Origin: a virus
Taxonomy: Duplodnaviria > Caudoviricetes
DNA length: 39,890 nucleotides
Virus record (IMG/VR): IMGVR_UViG_3300034418_010258
Span: 1 to 39,890 of that record
Direction: 5' to 3' (one strand)
Made by a program: the position numbers and the translations under genes
Shown here: piece after piece, positions 23,922 through 30,977 of the stretch
How positions within the stretch are numbered: position 1 is the first letter of the stretch
Layout: each line of letters opens with the position of its first letter
The notes under the pieces: generated by a model
Seen by the model: only the letters and a program-made list of their open reading frames with translations
Told to the model about the DNA's origin: nothing
The model's database searches: none

Positions 23922-24305
23922 TTATGCCACTGGTGGCTGAAGAAGGCTGTTATCCCCTAAAGATTTTGCTTCCCGCTTCCATTCCTCACCCCAATTTCGG
24001 AGATCCATGTTTGACTGCCTCACGTTCTCCAATTCGTCCTTCGCACGGTCGATATACCATTCGGCGTAATCGGCAGCCTCTTTAAGTTCCTCCAATTCCA
24101 TGCGATCCCATCCCTTCAACCTGCTTTCAGCGTCTTTCAGCGCATCGAGGGCAGCATCTACCATCGGGCACGTTGGTTGCGGTTGCGCGACGATCCCAAA
24201 CCGCTCTTCGCTCGTCGCGGGGGATAACAAGGCGCCGGACTCAACGCCAGACCCTATTGAGTCGGACGCCTTACCCTGTTCAGTTTCTTCTAGTGTTTTC
24301 ATCAT
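23922..24305 (-). CDS. Hypothetical protein (cassette 1 gene)
   Basis: 127 aa; TCPMVD...LENVRQSNMDLRNWG. The start codon lies inside attC-like site 1. Confidence 0.7.
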   Translation of the reverse strand: MMKTLEETEQGKASDSIGSGVESGALLSPATSEERFGIVAQPQPTCPMVDAALDALKDAESRLKGWDRMELEELKEAADYAEWYIDRAKDELENVRQSNMDLRNWGEEWKREAKSLGDNSLLQPPVA

Positions 24306-24342
24306 TGGTTCCCGTCTGGCGTGAGTCAGCTAGTCGTTCTCC
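24222..24342 (+). repeat. attC-like site 1
   Basis: GGATAAC-AAGGC-GCCGGACTC(A)ACGCCAGAC ... GTCTGGCGTGAGTCAGC-TAGTC-GTTCTCC, with an unpaired A in the left arm. Confidence 0.75.
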
Positions 24343-24644
24343 CAAGAAATCTCGAACGGGCCGAAATGGTATCCGGTCCAATCGTTTAGCTTCCGATCCC
24401 ATATGTGGCACTTTCGCGGAACCCACTCCCAATATCTAGGATGCTGAAAAATTAAGATGATTCTGAGCTTCGGCAGGTTGATTGCCCAGGCGTTCCATTC
24501 GTCGTAAAACTCAGAGCGAAACAACAAGGGAGAACAAGGCGAAGCACCTAACCCCTCACCCTCTGGTGGGCAATGCCGACAGGGGAGATGCCTCCCGCAT
24601 TCGCAGATTAGATCTTCTGGTGGGTTTTCGGGGTAGGTGTTCAT
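24330..24644 (-). CDS. Hypothetical protein (cassette 2 gene)
   Basis: Probable start MNTYPENPP at 24644, inside site 2. The stop lies in the right arm of site 1. Trp-rich. Confidence 0.55.
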   Translation of the reverse strand: MNTYPENPPEDLICECGRHLPCRHCPPEGEGLGASPCSPLLFRSEFYDEWNAWAINLPKLRIILIFQHPRYWEWVPRKCHIWDRKLNDWTGYHFGPFEISWEND

Positions 24645-24656
24645 CGTTCGTTCTGT
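24529..24656 (+). repeat. attC-like site 2
   Basis: GGAGAAC-AAGGC-GAA(G)CACCT(A)ACCCC ... GGGGTAGGTGTTC-ATCGTTC-GTTCTGT, with two unpaired bases in the left arm. Confidence 0.75.
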
Positions 24657-24657
24657 C

Positions 24658-24996
24658 CTAAGATTTCCACCAATCGGCGTCATCTTCCTGACCGACAACG
24701 CAGACAATGCGCTTTTCCTCGGGAATCAGTTCGATGATGTCTTGCATGGATGGGGCATCCCGCTCGCCAAGAAACTCTTGGCAGATCCCATCGAAGTTCA
24801 TTCCAAATTCGTGTGTGAATACGGGACGACCAAGCGCCTTTTCCACAGCCTCGTGGAACACGCCAAAGGGGCAGCACAGTTCGGCGGTGAACAGTTGGAA
24901 CTTGGCGATCTGGCGATGGGTTTTACCCTCCCACCAGTTTGATTCTGAAAGCGCAATGGCTCGCTCTTTTCCGACACTCTGTTGATATTGGTTCAT
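24658..24996 (-). CDS. Hypothetical phage-type protein (cassette 3 gene)
   Basis: 112 aa; FQLFTAELCCPFGVFHEAVEKALGRPVFTHEF. Confidence 0.75.
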   Translation of the reverse strand: MNQYQQSVGKERAIALSESNWWEGKTHRQIAKFQLFTAELCCPFGVFHEAVEKALGRPVFTHEFGMNFDGICQEFLGERDAPSMQDIIELIPEEKRIVCVVGQEDDADWWKS

Positions 24997-25007
24997 GGTA
25001 ATTCGGG

Positions 25008-25133
25008 ACAGAACAAGGCGGCGCAGACCAACCGGCTACCCGTTCCGAGTTCAATTTTTAGTGGTTGTTTCAAGGTTGGTTGAGATTCGATGCCGTGCCC
25101 CCGGTAGCCGGTGGCTGGCCTGGATCGTTCTGT
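25008..25133 (+). repeat. attC-like site 3
   Basis: ACAGAAC-AAGGC-GGCGCAG(A)CCA(A)CCGGCTACC ... GGTAGCCGGTGGCTGGCC-TGGATC-GTTCTGT. Confidence 0.78.
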
Positions 25134-25468
25134 GGAAGAGACTCCTCGATCTTAGCCCACCACGAGACATCGTCCGGTAGGTACCCGAAGCTGAAATCAC
25201 CGGTTTCGGGATCGACGAAATCCAGCTTGTCTTCGTCCGCGTAGACGCTCACCATCGCGACGTGCGGACCTCCACGGCATTCGACGACCACGACGAGCAA
25301 ATCACCATCCCACCACCACGGCACCCCATCTCGCTTTCCTGCCGTTCCGCCTCCTCCTCTCGCCGGTCCAGCGTTCCAGACCAACGGCACAGAACAAGTC
25401 AGCGCACTCGAATCCTGCTCTCGTTGGGGTTGTTCGGTCGGTTTCTCAGTTGATAGGGTATTGCTCAT
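25070..25468 (-). CDS. Hypothetical protein (cassette 4 gene)
   Basis: 132 aa. The N-terminus reads through half-site 4 (ALTCSV) and the C-terminus reads into site 3 (PQND). Confidence 0.65.
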   Translation of the reverse strand: MSNTLSTEKPTEQPQREQDSSALTCSVPLVWNAGPARGGGGTAGKRDGVPWWWDGDLLVVVVECRGGPHVAMVSVYADEDKLDFVDPETGDFSFGYLPDDVSWWAKIEESLPQNDPGQPPATGGTASNLNQP

Positions 25469-25881: not shown

Positions 25882-26787
25882 TCATTTATCGTTCCCTGCT
25901 AAAATTTCCCATGCGAGTGCAGCTCTATTTGTGTCAATCCATTCTTGAAAGCAATCTCCAGGCGTATGCTGCACAGATTGGAACTTGTCCGTTTCCAATG
26001 GCTTTAAGTCGGTCCAAGTAATTGGAACCCCGTTCATCCACTCGAGAAAACAAGGGTTCAGAAAGAGTTTTCCAAGGGGTTCCCCTCGAAATGGGTTTCC
26101 GCTCCCTCCGAGTTCTTGAACTTGGCCGCGCCACTTCTCGGTCCCTGCGTTCGGAGTCGGAAAAAAAACCCCACATATCTGAGTTGCCAGATTCCACTGC
26201 CCCCGGGGATGGAGTCTCTCGACCTCTTTTTGTGTTGCTTTCATCGACGCTCCCATTGATTGATTCGCGAGCGGAGTAGCCAAGGATCCAGATTCGGTCG
26301 CGCTTGTGAGGTGCGGCAACGTGATGCGCTCCCAGCACACCCCATTTCGCATCATACCCCATCGCGGCAAGGTCACCGAGGACCACGGCAAGTCCTCTTC
26401 CCACAAGCAACGGTGAGTTTTCCACGAAGACGAATCTCGGTCGTATTTCACCGATAACTCTAGCCATTTCCCCCCAGAGTCCGGATCGCTCGCCTCCAAT
26501 ACCTGCGCCTTTCCCGGCTGCACTGATGTCTTGGCATGGGAATCCGCCGGCGACAATCTCGACATGCCCCCTCCAGGGTCGCCCGTCGAATGTTTGTATG
26601 TCATCCCAGATTGGGAAGAAGGGCAGGATCCCGTCTCGCTGCCGTTGCAGCAGGACTTTCCGTGGGTATTCCTCGATTTCACAAGCTCCGACAGGTAGGT
26701 GTCCAAGCAGAAGGTCTGCGAGGATTCCGCCTCCTGCTCCCGCGAAGAGGTGGAAACTTCGCAATCGTGTATCGTGGACCAACTCAT
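25882..26787 (-). CDS. Overlapping-frame methyltransferase beta chain carrying motif IX
   Basis: 301-aa ORF in another frame that overlaps almost all of the alpha gene and contains LNPCFLEWMNGVPITWT. The true start may be internal. Confidence 0.65.
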   Translation of the reverse strand: MSWSTIHDCEVSTSSREQEAESSQTFCLDTYLSELVKSRNTHGKSCCNGSETGSCPSSQSGMTYKHSTGDPGGGMSRLSPADSHAKTSVQPGKAQVLEASDPDSGGKWLELSVKYDRDSSSWKTHRCLWEEDLPWSSVTLPRWGMMRNGVCWERITLPHLTSATESGSLATPLANQSMGASMKATQKEVERLHPRGQWNLATQICGVFFPTPNAGTEKWRGQVQELGGSGNPFRGEPLGKLFLNPCFLEWMNGVPITWTDLKPLETDKFQSVQHTPGDCFQEWIDTNRAALAWEILAGNDK

Positions 26788-26791
26788 TCAT
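25934..26791 (-). CDS. C5 cytosine DNA methyltransferase, alpha chain (motifs I-VIII and X)
   Basis: LFAGAGGG (I), GGFPCQDIS (IV), FVENS (VI), HKRDRIWI (VIII), RLKAIGNGQVP (X). Confidence 0.9.
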   Translation of the reverse strand: MNELVHDTRLRSFHLFAGAGGGILADLLLGHLPVGACEIEEYPRKVLLQRQRDGILPFFPIWDDIQTFDGRPWRGHVEIVAGGFPCQDISAAGKGAGIGGERSGLWGEMARVIGEIRPRFVFVENSPLLVGRGLAVVLGDLAAMGYDAKWGVLGAHHVAAPHKRDRIWILGYSARESINGSVDESNTKRGRETPSPGAVESGNSDMWGFFSDSERRDREVARPSSRTRRERKPISRGTPWKTLSEPLFSRVDERGSNYLDRLKAIGNGQVPICAAYAWRLLSRMD

Positions 26792-27852: not shown

Positions 27853-28572
27853 TCAGAATTCGTTGTTCTTGCTTTGGGCCGCTTCCAGTTCATCTTCCCA
27901 ACCATCACGGTTGAGCCAGGTAGAGGCATGAGGTGAGTATTTCGGTTCGGTGAAAGCGTGAGGTGATTCAACCTGCTCCTTCAGGGCATCAATGATGCAC
28001 TGTGCTTCCGCCCTCTTGCATGCCTTCGCGAATGCCTTCCTTGCCGCTCCCTTCCCGACCTTCCTGGGGTAAATCTCCCAGAATTGAGCAAAAGTACTCT
28101 CTTCACTGCTTCTGTACTCTGCCTCTGTACTCTGCTTCTGCTTCTGCTTCTGCTTGGTGTTACTGGCGTTACATTGCGTTACATCAGCGTTACATTGCGT
28201 TACATCCTTCTGTTTCTCCCTGTATCTCTGAACCCGTAGCCTTGTCTTTTCCCGCATATCGTCCGCACTTCTCATTGCCCGATATGACTCAAAATTCAAG
28301 ATTTCCCAACCATAGCCGGAACCCTCTAAGGCTTTGATCCTTCGCCCTTCATGGTCTAGCGATTTTGAGAGTGGGTCAGGTTTTGACAATTCCTCAATCC
28401 CCCATTCTACCTCATCAATTGGGGCTCCTATTCTGCGCGCTATCGCTGCCGGGGTCATCATTACGACTCCCTTTGAATCAGCGCAGAGAAGGAAATCCGT
28501 AAAAAAATGACGTAGTTTCCTATCGTCTGCTATGGATGAGTCGAGTATTTGTGTAAAGAGTTTTACAAACAT
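27853..28572 (-). CDS. Replication initiator protein (lambda O/DnaD-like)
   Basis: MFVKLF..ILDSSI N-terminus, FWEIYPRKVGKGAARKAF...HASTWLNRDGWEDE C-terminus, internal iterons, and position upstream of the loader. Confidence 0.8.
   Translation of the reverse strand: MFVKLFTQILDSSIADDRKLRHFFTDFLLCADSKGVVMMTPAAIARRIGAPIDEVEWGIEELSKPDPLSKSLDHEGRRIKALEGSGYGWEILNFESYRAMRSADDMREKTRLRVQRYREKQKDVTQCNADVTQCNASNTKQKQKQKQSTEAEYRSSEESTFAQFWEIYPRKVGKGAARKAFAKACKRAEAQCIIDALKEQVESPHAFTEPKYSPHASTWLNRDGWEDELEAAQSKNNEF
28157..28205. repeat. Iterons / putative replication origin
   Basis: GCGTTACA at 28166, 28176, 28187 and 28197 (10-11 bp period), next to (TTCTGC)n repeats. Confidence 0.75.
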
Positions 28573-28591
28573 GGTTTATTCCTGTTTCCTT

Positions 28592-28627
28592 GCGTTACTG
28601 TAGCGTTACATCGCGTTACAATAACGC
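28592..28627. promoter_or_regulatory. Iteron copies upstream of the initiator gene (putative autoregulatory operator)
   Basis: GCGTTAC(T/A) at 28592, 28603 and 28613, plus an inverted TAACGC at 28622. Confidence 0.65.
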
Positions 28628-28636
28628 AAGTGTTTT

Positions 28637-29857
28637 CTACATCGCTGCATGAAATCCACTGTAGAGGTCGATTTCTCCGACCTTGTAGCTTGAGGGTTCG
28701 AGCGTCTGCTCCTGCGCCTCCATCATGTCCGCGGACCATTTCCCCCGCTTGTAGAGCGAAGCGAGTTTCTGGATCTCGGTGTTGTATTTGACGGTCTCCG
28801 CCTGGATCCAGTCGTCCGGCAGCCAGAAGATACGGGCAATGAACGGTGCCACTTTTTCCTGAGCAAGGAATCCCGCCCTCTTTTTGGGGAAGTCGTAGGC
28901 TGCCACTTCCGGGTGACCCTCCAGCCACTGCGAAATGCGGATGTAAGATGCCATCGAAAAGTCGTAACCGTTCATCTCGACCTGCTTCCCAAACGCAAGG
29001 GGATGTGCTGACAGGCATGTCTTCGGGTCGAGAATCGCATCTCCAGCCGGAAGGATGTCGAGCCTGCCCTTTGTCTGGACATGAAACTCCTTTCCTGACG
29101 ACCCAAACGAAGCAACAGCAAAGAGTCCCACCTCCTTGTGCTTCTTCTGAAGTTTCATCTCGCGAAGGTAGGTGCCGACCTCCGAGGATTCAGGGTGGTC
29201 GTGCATCGCATCCACCATGCGCCGAACGTGCTCCAACATCGCAGGCTTGACAATCAGCCGGCCGGCGGAAGTCTGTTCCTCCTTCCACTTGTCGTATTCA
29301 GTCTGCGGGAAGGTGTTCTCGATCTCCTCCTTCATCCGCTTCCGGGTCGCGGCCAGGATTTCTTCCTTCTCCTCATCAGTCTTCGGAAGGTTCCCGTGCT
29401 TTTTCTTGTAATCCTGAGCTTCCTTGCTGTTCCCTGAATACTTTTCCGGCAATCCCCCCTCCTTGCGCCTGAGGCGCCTCTCAGTGAGTTCCGAGAGTAT
29501 CTCTGGTGTAAGGACAGCGAATTCGTTGTTGAACTCGTCAGGAGTCAACAGGACGCAATGGTAGAGAGATCCGAAAATCAGCGCCTCAGTCTCTTCCCGG
29601 TAATCGATTCCGACAGGTAGGTCGATGTTGTTGTTCGTACACCACCTCGCGATTCGGTCGTTCGCGATTCGGGTGAAGTGTCCGCGGTTGCCGAACGAGG
29701 TGAATTCCTGCGACCCGTTCTTGATGTCAGATCCGCTGATCCCAGGTGCGACCCGATATTCTCGCATCGGTTGATTGATTCGCACCCCGTTGATGCCGGC
29801 ATCGGGATTCACCGGAAAGCAGTCCGAGAGAATTTCTCTGTAGGTTGGGATTTTCAT
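28637..29857 (-). CDS. PD-(D/E)XK exonuclease (RecE/ExoVIII-like)
   Basis: ISGSDIK, ALIFGSLYHCVLLTP, KGRLDIL...DPKT, GYDFSMASY and AQEKVAPF motifs; near erf. Confidence 0.8.
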   Translation of the reverse strand: MKIPTYREILSDCFPVNPDAGINGVRINQPMREYRVAPGISGSDIKNGSQEFTSFGNRGHFTRIANDRIARWCTNNNIDLPVGIDYREETEALIFGSLYHCVLLTPDEFNNEFAVLTPEILSELTERRLRRKEGGLPEKYSGNSKEAQDYKKKHGNLPKTDEEKEEILAATRKRMKEEIENTFPQTEYDKWKEEQTSAGRLIVKPAMLEHVRRMVDAMHDHPESSEVGTYLREMKLQKKHKEVGLFAVASFGSSGKEFHVQTKGRLDILPAGDAILDPKTCLSAHPLAFGKQVEMNGYDFSMASYIRISQWLEGHPEVAAYDFPKKRAGFLAQEKVAPFIARIFWLPDDWIQAETVKYNTEIQKLASLYKRGKWSADMMEAQEQTLEPSSYKVGEIDLYSGFHAAM

Positions 29858-30149: not shown

Positions 30150-30977
30150 TTAGATTTCTTCGTTGTTAATGGTTTCCATGATGGTGTTCCACTTCTCATC
30201 TCGCGTCATGTCATCCTGCCATGCCACTGGAAGCTTCCGCCAGTCGTTGAACTTCTTCTTTGTGAGAATGGAAATCGCTCCATTCAGTTGGGTCTCGGTG
30301 ATCCCGTTCGATGCCATGTTCACCTCCATCAGTTCCTCGTAGGTAGGTTCCGGACCCTGCGTCTGAGGTGCTGCGGGTTCCTCCTTCTTCCATGCTGCCC
30401 GACCTGGATCCACCGGAGGATCCTCGGTGCTGTTGCCGTCGTCGTCCTCATCAGTGGTTTCAATTCCCAGGGCATTCTGGAGGGCATAGCGTTTGCCGTA
30501 TGACATCGCAGACCCGAGTCCCTGCACCTTGTTCTTGAATCCACTGTCGTCGATGCAGACAGGCGCCAGTGCCTCCCAGGAATGTCCTGCCTCATGGGTG
30601 ATCGTGCAGATGACCCCGGTGATTCCACCGTTTGTCCCGAGCACAGAGGTGAACCGTTCGGTGAATCCACACTCGACCATCAGCGGCCGGATCTGCTTCA
30701 TCATGGCATCGAAACTGGTGTACCTGCTCACGGGCCGGCCGGACCGGTCGTGAATGATCGAGTTCTTCTGCAATTGAGGGCATGCTCTCTTGAACTTCTG
30801 GAGGGCCAGGGCAGCAAGGTGCTGCGCCTCCTTCGTCAGGATCCGCTCTTGCAGGTCGAGCATGCGTTCCAGTTTCTCCACATCTGCGTCCGGATCGCGG
30901 ACAATGCGTTCGATGGCATGCAGGGTGAGCTGCCCCTGCGTTGCCCCTTCGGGTGCTGTTGTTATTTCAGTCGTCAT
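30150..30977 (-). CDS. erf: ERF-family ssDNA annealing protein
   Basis: QGLGSAMSYGKRYALQNALGI...DEDDDGN signature. Confidence 0.9.
   Translation of the reverse strand: MTTEITTAPEGATQGQLTLHAIERIVRDPDADVEKLERMLDLQERILTKEAQHLAALALQKFKRACPQLQKNSIIHDRSGRPVSRYTSFDAMMKQIRPLMVECGFTERFTSVLGTNGGITGVICTITHEAGHSWEALAPVCIDDSGFKNKVQGLGSAMSYGKRYALQNALGIETTDEDDDGNSTEDPPVDPGRAAWKKEEPAAPQTQGPEPTYEELMEVNMASNGITETQLNGAISILTKKKFNDWRKLPVAWQDDMTRDEKWNTIMETINNEEI

Follow-up and report, generated by a model that had tools for sequence, protein, structure and literature searches.

Sister phages appear to gain and lose gene cassettes of an integrase-less attC array at the G/TT crossover point of integrons

Lambdoid and T4-like phages exchange small accessory genes as modules at conserved short boundary sequences. 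The locus described here differs from these systems in that its repeated elements are attC sites and its joints share 3-7 nt at G/TT. More similar arrangements are the CALINs, of which Qi et al. 2023 (PMC9892861) list 17 in 10,705 phage genomes. According to the accessible sections of that paper, phage attC sites recombine with IntI1 in five of six tests, and off-target or illegitimate recombination is suggested as the route of entry. As in the CALINs of the virulent phages TJE1, PH101 and P12002L, an attC cluster with small genes and no integrase is present here; comparative cassette turnover in phage populations, which is documented below, does not appear in these sections. The genes of TJE1 are located sense to attC, whereas those of the present locus are antisense. 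The annotated genes of PH101 lie on the strand listed as bottom, an antisense layout as observed here, on which the accessible text does not comment. For both published attC sites of PH101 (L250:1890-1950 and 2501-2558) the listed bottom strand is the coding strand of the flanking genes. Integrase-less attC clusters in phages and reversed polarity at PH101 are therefore already known, as far as this source shows. The sedentary chromosomal integrons of Verrucomicrobiales (IntI by TIGR02249, attI and array; L133, L143, L159, L161) share attC type, extra bases and chaining with the phage locus. In contrast to these integrons, the phage lacks intI, and its genes are antisense and overlap the attC sites.

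The window, i.e. the whole stretch of DNA that was analyzed, is a complete 39.9 kb phage genome (39,890 nt, completeness rating 100%) with a terminal repeat of 129 nt. Every recognisable gene is located on the minus strand, which is G-rich and coding. These genes encode Erf, a RecE-like nuclease, a replication initiator, a DnaC-like loader, a DNA methylase, terminase subunits, capsid and podovirus-type tail proteins, and the array is positioned between the methylase gene and terS. The phage's own recombination genes, coding for a RecE-like exonuclease (28637-29857, minus strand) and an Erf annealase (30150-30977, minus strand), are relevant to an integrase-free explanation of the array. No tyrosine recombinase was detected in the complete genome by six-frame profile searches with PF00589 (0/1) and TIGR02249 (0/1), in agreement with the original prediction; controls were positive in 14 of 14 genomes. 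The array region is listed for 13 runs, all of them freshwater metagenomes and most with a small share, and no RNA dataset is listed for it.

Further features were noted elsewhere in the genome. A giant minus-strand ORF of roughly 3,550 amino acids extends across the genome ends (5615->1 and 39890->34664), contains internal repeats at 881-2437 that differ in number or order in the sister phage, and shows a weak ART-PolyVal match below cut-off (E 3e-4). Its product looks like a polyvalent injected virion protein. Two long ORFs (301 and 285 amino acids) overlap at 25882-26791 on the same strand in different frames; both match methyltransferase PHROGs, and the double frame also occurs in the sister phage and in the distant relative G002. 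Repeat units containing GTTACA at 28147-28204 and 28584-28641, in and beside the replication initiator gene, are likely the iterons of a replication origin.

Three attC sites with the expected anatomy had been predicted in the array, and their boxes were confirmed. On the plus strand, attC1 spans 24220..24344 (AAC at 24226, GTT at 24336), attC2 spans 24527..24658 (AAC at 24533, GTT at 24650) and attC3 spans 25006..25135, whereas attC4 (25388..25468) is truncated at a start codon (ATG at 25468), so that it comprises only the left arm and the loop. R'' (..AAC) and R' (GTT..) boxes flank inverted L arms in all three full sites, and all eight predicted R boxes were found in place. The motif AAC-AAG[GT]C occurs four times in the 39,890 nt, always on the plus strand and always inside the array. 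In arm alignments of the three full sites, the unpaired bases always fall within the left arm on the plus strand, which is therefore the attC top strand. The prediction of one or two unpaired bases including an A holds for sites 1 and 2, which both carry an extra G and A, but not for site 3, which carries three (G+A+A). The right spacers of sites 1-3 measure 5, 7 and 6 nt; that of site 2 is atypical, as attC spacers normally measure 5 nt on one side and 5-6 nt on the other. Site 2 also harbors a second GTT 4 nt upstream, but the joints in the reads nonetheless use 24650.

The sites were also recognized by a covariance model, as the original prediction had anticipated. This custom model, R1, was trained on 29 bacterial attC sites aligned from 67 loci, which had been fetched from bacterial genomes with a two-arm pattern and of which about 30 are labelled Verrucomicrobiota. 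On the plus strand it scores attC1 with 44.6, attC2 with 37.3 and attC3 with 70.8 bits, and the next match in the window reaches 10.2 bits. R1 is partly circular: the pattern used to fetch the training loci had been modelled on the phage sites, so that the end motifs are in part predetermined. Neither the covariation nor the integrases next to the training loci depend on that pattern. In the host attC stem 15 of 21 pairs show two-sided changes, and 87% of the cells are paired compared with 27-44% in slid controls. The viral scan with R1 covered 86 loci, six of them terminase relatives and the other 80 from a loose pattern whose 120 loci are mostly chance matches. Among these 80, E < 0.01 was obtained only in L030, L049 and L052, and the examined flanks of the terminase relatives L007, L008 and L009 contained no match. 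The exact site-3 pattern was found in 0 viral contigs and a tight degenerate attC pattern in 0 genomes, and an Rfam search gave no real match. A generic AAC-GTT arm scanner was dropped as too loose, since it returned dozens of matches in the window.

The R' box (5 nt after GTT) of each site complements, at 5/5 positions, the R'' box of the site that follows. With a total of 20/20, this arrangement is the best of 24 permutations (runner-up 18), as expected from the claim that each GTT box fits the next AAC box better than its own. The chaining had been read as the scar of cassette integration. It is exact but ordinary in any integron array, as it exceeds own-site pairing in 71 of 85 bacterial and nine of nine phage cassettes, and chained R boxes were for this reason rejected as a novelty. 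Folding of the bottom strand had been proposed as a further check. In the minus strand, the fold of lowest energy brings the two arms together, although z against shuffles is only -1.3 to -1.6, and the folding energy of whole sites is not better than that of shuffles (z -0.9 to -1.6). The array contains at least two attC sites within 3 kb according to R1, the spacing used for CALINs in the accessible text of PMC9892861, and has no integron integrase nearby in the PF00589 and TIGR02249 searches. We consider it a genuine CALIN that functions in the manner of an integron array. It is not a complete integron, as intI is absent in cis and the cassette genes are not sense to attC.

The left end of the array is an anchor at 23932..23957 on the plus strand, with the crossover G/TT at 23949/23950. 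It occupies the position where attI would be, lacks a left arm and carries an L'-like GGTGGCTGA in the register of the right arms of host attC sites. Both predicted half-sites were located, the right half ending at ~23957 and the left half starting at 25388, but the left element at 23949 is not matched by R1. A matrix was built from 15 candidate attI sites of hosts, which themselves score -3.5 to 10.0 when left out one at a time. On this host attI matrix the anchor scores -3.1, a value equalled or exceeded by 17.5% of the 754 GTT in the window. The anchors of the distant relatives G002 and G003 score 3.9 and 6.8, and 0 of the 754 window GTT score as high. The attI and attC matrices are weak, because even the genuine sites 1 and 2 obtain low scores on the attC matrix. 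As a crossover site, the anchor has been used repeatedly: three different first cassettes adjoin it in the window, in the sister phage G001 and in a contig of run X8. A scan of metagenomes for the anchor gave three matches, of which two represent the window and sister alleles and the third is a coincidental match within a bacterial gene. The attG sites, secondary targets of integron integrases, are said to have been described by Loot et al. in 2024 and could explain the first capture of a cassette at a non-attI anchor such as 23949. What distinguishes the present anchor from attG is its apparent reuse, by at least three cassettes that differ from one another.

Four cassettes follow the anchor on the plus strand, and all four genes are encoded on the bottom strand, antisense to attC and overlapping the sites, with stops in or beside the preceding site. 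For cassette 1 (23950..24336, 387 bp, TT... to G), run X2 contains another allele, which shows 28 differences. Its gene (23922..24305, minus strand, 127 amino acids, no family) starts in the attC1 loop and runs across the left arm of attC1 and then the anchor. Six full-length versions of the protein (five of them other homologues) share G(D/E)N, encoded by the R-box codons, followed by five different tails. Cassette 2 (24337..24650, 314 bp) harbors a gene at 24330..24644 (minus strand, 104 amino acids from the ATG; ORF open to 24707) with its ATG within the right arm of attC2 and its stop within the right spacer of attC1. The gene of cassette 3 (24651..25127, 477 bp) is located at 24658..24996 (minus strand), encodes 112 amino acids assigned to DUF7736 / PHROG 13999 and starts 10 nt from attC3; its homologues were found in two other phage contigs, in one next to attC-like sites and in the other without them. 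Cassette 4 (25128..25468) is common to the sister phage at 95.9%, and its gene (25070..25468, minus strand, 132 amino acids, no family) stops in the attC3 loop and starts at the point where attC4 is cut. An intact attC4 homologue is present in L154 (112-249), and contigs in run X9 break exactly at 25468/25469. In L154, a short MAG contig, the intact site adjoins a repressor-like gene, and the antisense gene has an N-terminus nearly identical to that of the site-4 gene. The sharing of cassette 4 with the sister phage and the broken attC4 fit a unit that, judged from these sequences, is likely the oldest and distal one. For cassette genes 1, 2 and 4 no function was obtained from PHROGs, NCBIfam, Pfam or the atlas. 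A scan of the array for promoters and terminators remained at chance level with no promoter-like site, and GenBank phages matched the array in nothing beyond short weak pieces.

Natural variation at the locus was analyzed in the sister phage G001, which is ~94% identical to the window (91-95% across most of its length), and in metagenome contigs. The comparison of relatives that the original prediction had called for placed breakpoints at G/TT in both. Identity between G001 and the window ends at 23951, right after the GTT, and returns at ATC-GTT 25124-25129, at cassette 4. Between these shared flanks G001 harbors four units unrelated to those of the window, with the chained boxes GTTCGTCGC/GCGACGAAC, GTTCTCCTC/GAGGAGAAC and GTTCTCTTT/AAAGAGAAC; chaining comprises three of its four R boxes plus the shared one, and the fourth unit has lost its left arm. 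Site 4 and sister site D were broken by events outside GTT. Runs X4 and X5, from two studies, also contain the sister allele, which places 1266 nt between 23951 and 25124. The joint 24333->24648 lacks exactly the 314 nt of cassette 2, with seven shared bases across G/TT, and occurs in X1, X2 (which possibly represent the source sample) and X7; its sides measure 23-24 nt in X1/X2 and 47 nt in X7, which belongs to another study. The joint 23948->25127 in X8 (side 48) lacks all three cassettes, so that the anchor meets cassette 4, and shares only GTT; it bypasses an 8-nt block common to the anchor and site 3 just upstream. In X9, cassette 2 is present from its G/TT with a different left neighbour. 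In X1, cassette 3 forms its own contig at a depth of 52 compared with ~20 for the backbone (~2.5 times). Other variable regions of the phage show, in the sister comparison, DNA swapped without attC.

The joint data derive from contigs of eight of the 13 listed runs, and for short contigs the letters between the sides are not known. The joints 24579->25514 (22-nt side) and 25402->25486 were left out. Circular cassette junctions, likewise suggested as a check, were not detected as back-joints in the contigs of these eight runs; contigs drop rare forms. The joints could stem from other phages that share these units, but the exchange unit is the cassette either way. Natural alleles of one phage species thus document the exchange of whole units at the integron cut point, and this argues that the clusters are live.

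As the phage itself encodes no integrase, a trans-acting enzyme is required. The named terminase homologues belong to Luteolibacter luteus, Prosthecobacter dejongeii and an Akkermansiaceae MAG (43-47% identity). They point, independently of the attC sites, to a putative host in the Verrucomicrobiales, at order level only. Within the Luteolibacter family, 67 of 151 genomes contain TIGR02249 above cut-off, and attC3 matches attC DNA in 14 of 301 genomes at 70-94% identity. The integrase-like ORFs beside the same attC type pass the TIGR02249 cut-off at all five tested loci, which bears out the expectation of an IntI next to similar sites in the likely host group. A host integron would be the simplest source of a trans-acting enzyme, another element being a less simple one.

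We therefore regard the locus as an integrase-less cassette array in which sister phages have gained and lost units at G/TT, with a host integron integrase likely acting in trans during infection (probability roughly 0.7). IntI is established to produce what is seen here, i.e. crossovers restricted to GTT with 3-7 shared bases, chaining of the boxes and conserved extra bases. According to this reading, IntI would cut the folded bottom strands of attC, and circular cassettes would pass from one phage genome to another, whether co-infecting or resident. The left anchor, located at the promoter-distal end of the leftward phage transcript, would be the entry point of new units, which would push older ones toward the decayed site 4; each unit would often bring its own start codon inside its attC. 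The same chemistry might be carried out by an integrase from a co-infecting phage, a prophage or a plasmid instead of the host chromosomal integron. In the 301 host-family genomes none of the cassette bodies was found and, of the array, only attC3 itself was matched (two candidates scored per genome), which makes the pool look phage-side. However, PF00589 was absent from all four related phage records, two of them complete and G002 and G003 both included, and IntI is common in the candidate host family, so that this source is considered unlikely.

An exchange of modules by Erf and RecE, with attC remnants serving as short shared boundary sequences and no integrase involved, is less probable still. 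The phage encodes both an Erf and a RecE-like nuclease, its genome is mosaic elsewhere, and the cut of site 4 at a start codon is a typical gene-boundary junction. However, joints confined to GTT are hard to obtain from such annealing, because exact matches between sites reach 11 nt at most, in the left arms, whereas the joints share 3 to 7 nt, always across GTT. Furthermore, the X8 joint ignores the available 8-nt block, and crossovers in the arms are not expected to yield chained R boxes. Least credible is a fossil array, captured once as a cassette block from a host integron and kept for translation signals or mRNA hairpins. The decay of several sites, the starts and stops inside sites and the weak folding are compatible with such a relic, but its genes are antisense, unlike host cassettes, and the nearest look-alikes of the cassette genes are viral (atlas scores < 0.9, leads only). 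Wholly different content at precise ends between 94%-identical phages speaks against it as well, and the G001 allele together with the contig joints largely refutes it.

The polarity of the genes, which the original prediction does not mention, separates phage from bacterial cassettes. The longest ORF is sense in 69, antisense in nine and tied in seven of 85 bacterial cassettes (from 124 of 166 R1 matches, with singletons, one duplicate locus and weak matches excluded), whereas it is antisense in eight, sense in none and tied in one of nine phage cassettes (from the three window sites and 15 of 37 viral R1 matches). The distant relatives G002 and G003 (terminase ~50%) also harbor antisense arrays, which occupy the corresponding position in their genomes and include methylase, PAPS-reductase-like and Pol-beta-like genes. 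A PAPS-reductase-like antisense cassette is common to both (L005, L215-L216) but located at different array positions. A Verrucomicrobia-type attC array with antisense genes also occurs in a contig binned as Propionivibrio (L181:5217-8597), which may be a phage or prophage that was misbinned. In the literature searched, which covered few subscription journals, neither antisense cassette arrays of phages nor the turnover of such arrays were found to be described. If replication follows the genes, the bottom strand would be the lagging-strand template, a position reported in the accessible part of PMC5371416 to raise excision. Alternatively, reversed polarity might leave a host cassette that lands in the array untranscribed; many host integron cassettes in Vibrio are anti-phage, according to the accessible part of 10.1101/2024.07.02.601686. 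A wider proposal, whose chances we place a little short of even, is that lytic phages of Verrucomicrobiales run their own cassette pool of mirror polarity on the host integrase. Phage genes would become cassettes by acquiring an attC that contains their start codon and would be traded between phages, and polarity would silence host cassettes in the phage and phage cassettes in the host integron.

What is new here is unusually direct natural evidence of precise cassette exchange in a phage. In the earlier picture, phage attC clusters were rare and their activity had been shown on cloned sites only. The gene family of cassette 3, which occurs with and without attC flanks, offers a handle on how cassettes are made, and the antisense layout implies that gene starts overlapping attC may escape cassette surveys. 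Should the catalyst be host IntI, a system that bacteria use for adaptation and in which anti-phage genes are stored (10.1101/2024.07.02.601686, accessible part) would also diversify phages.
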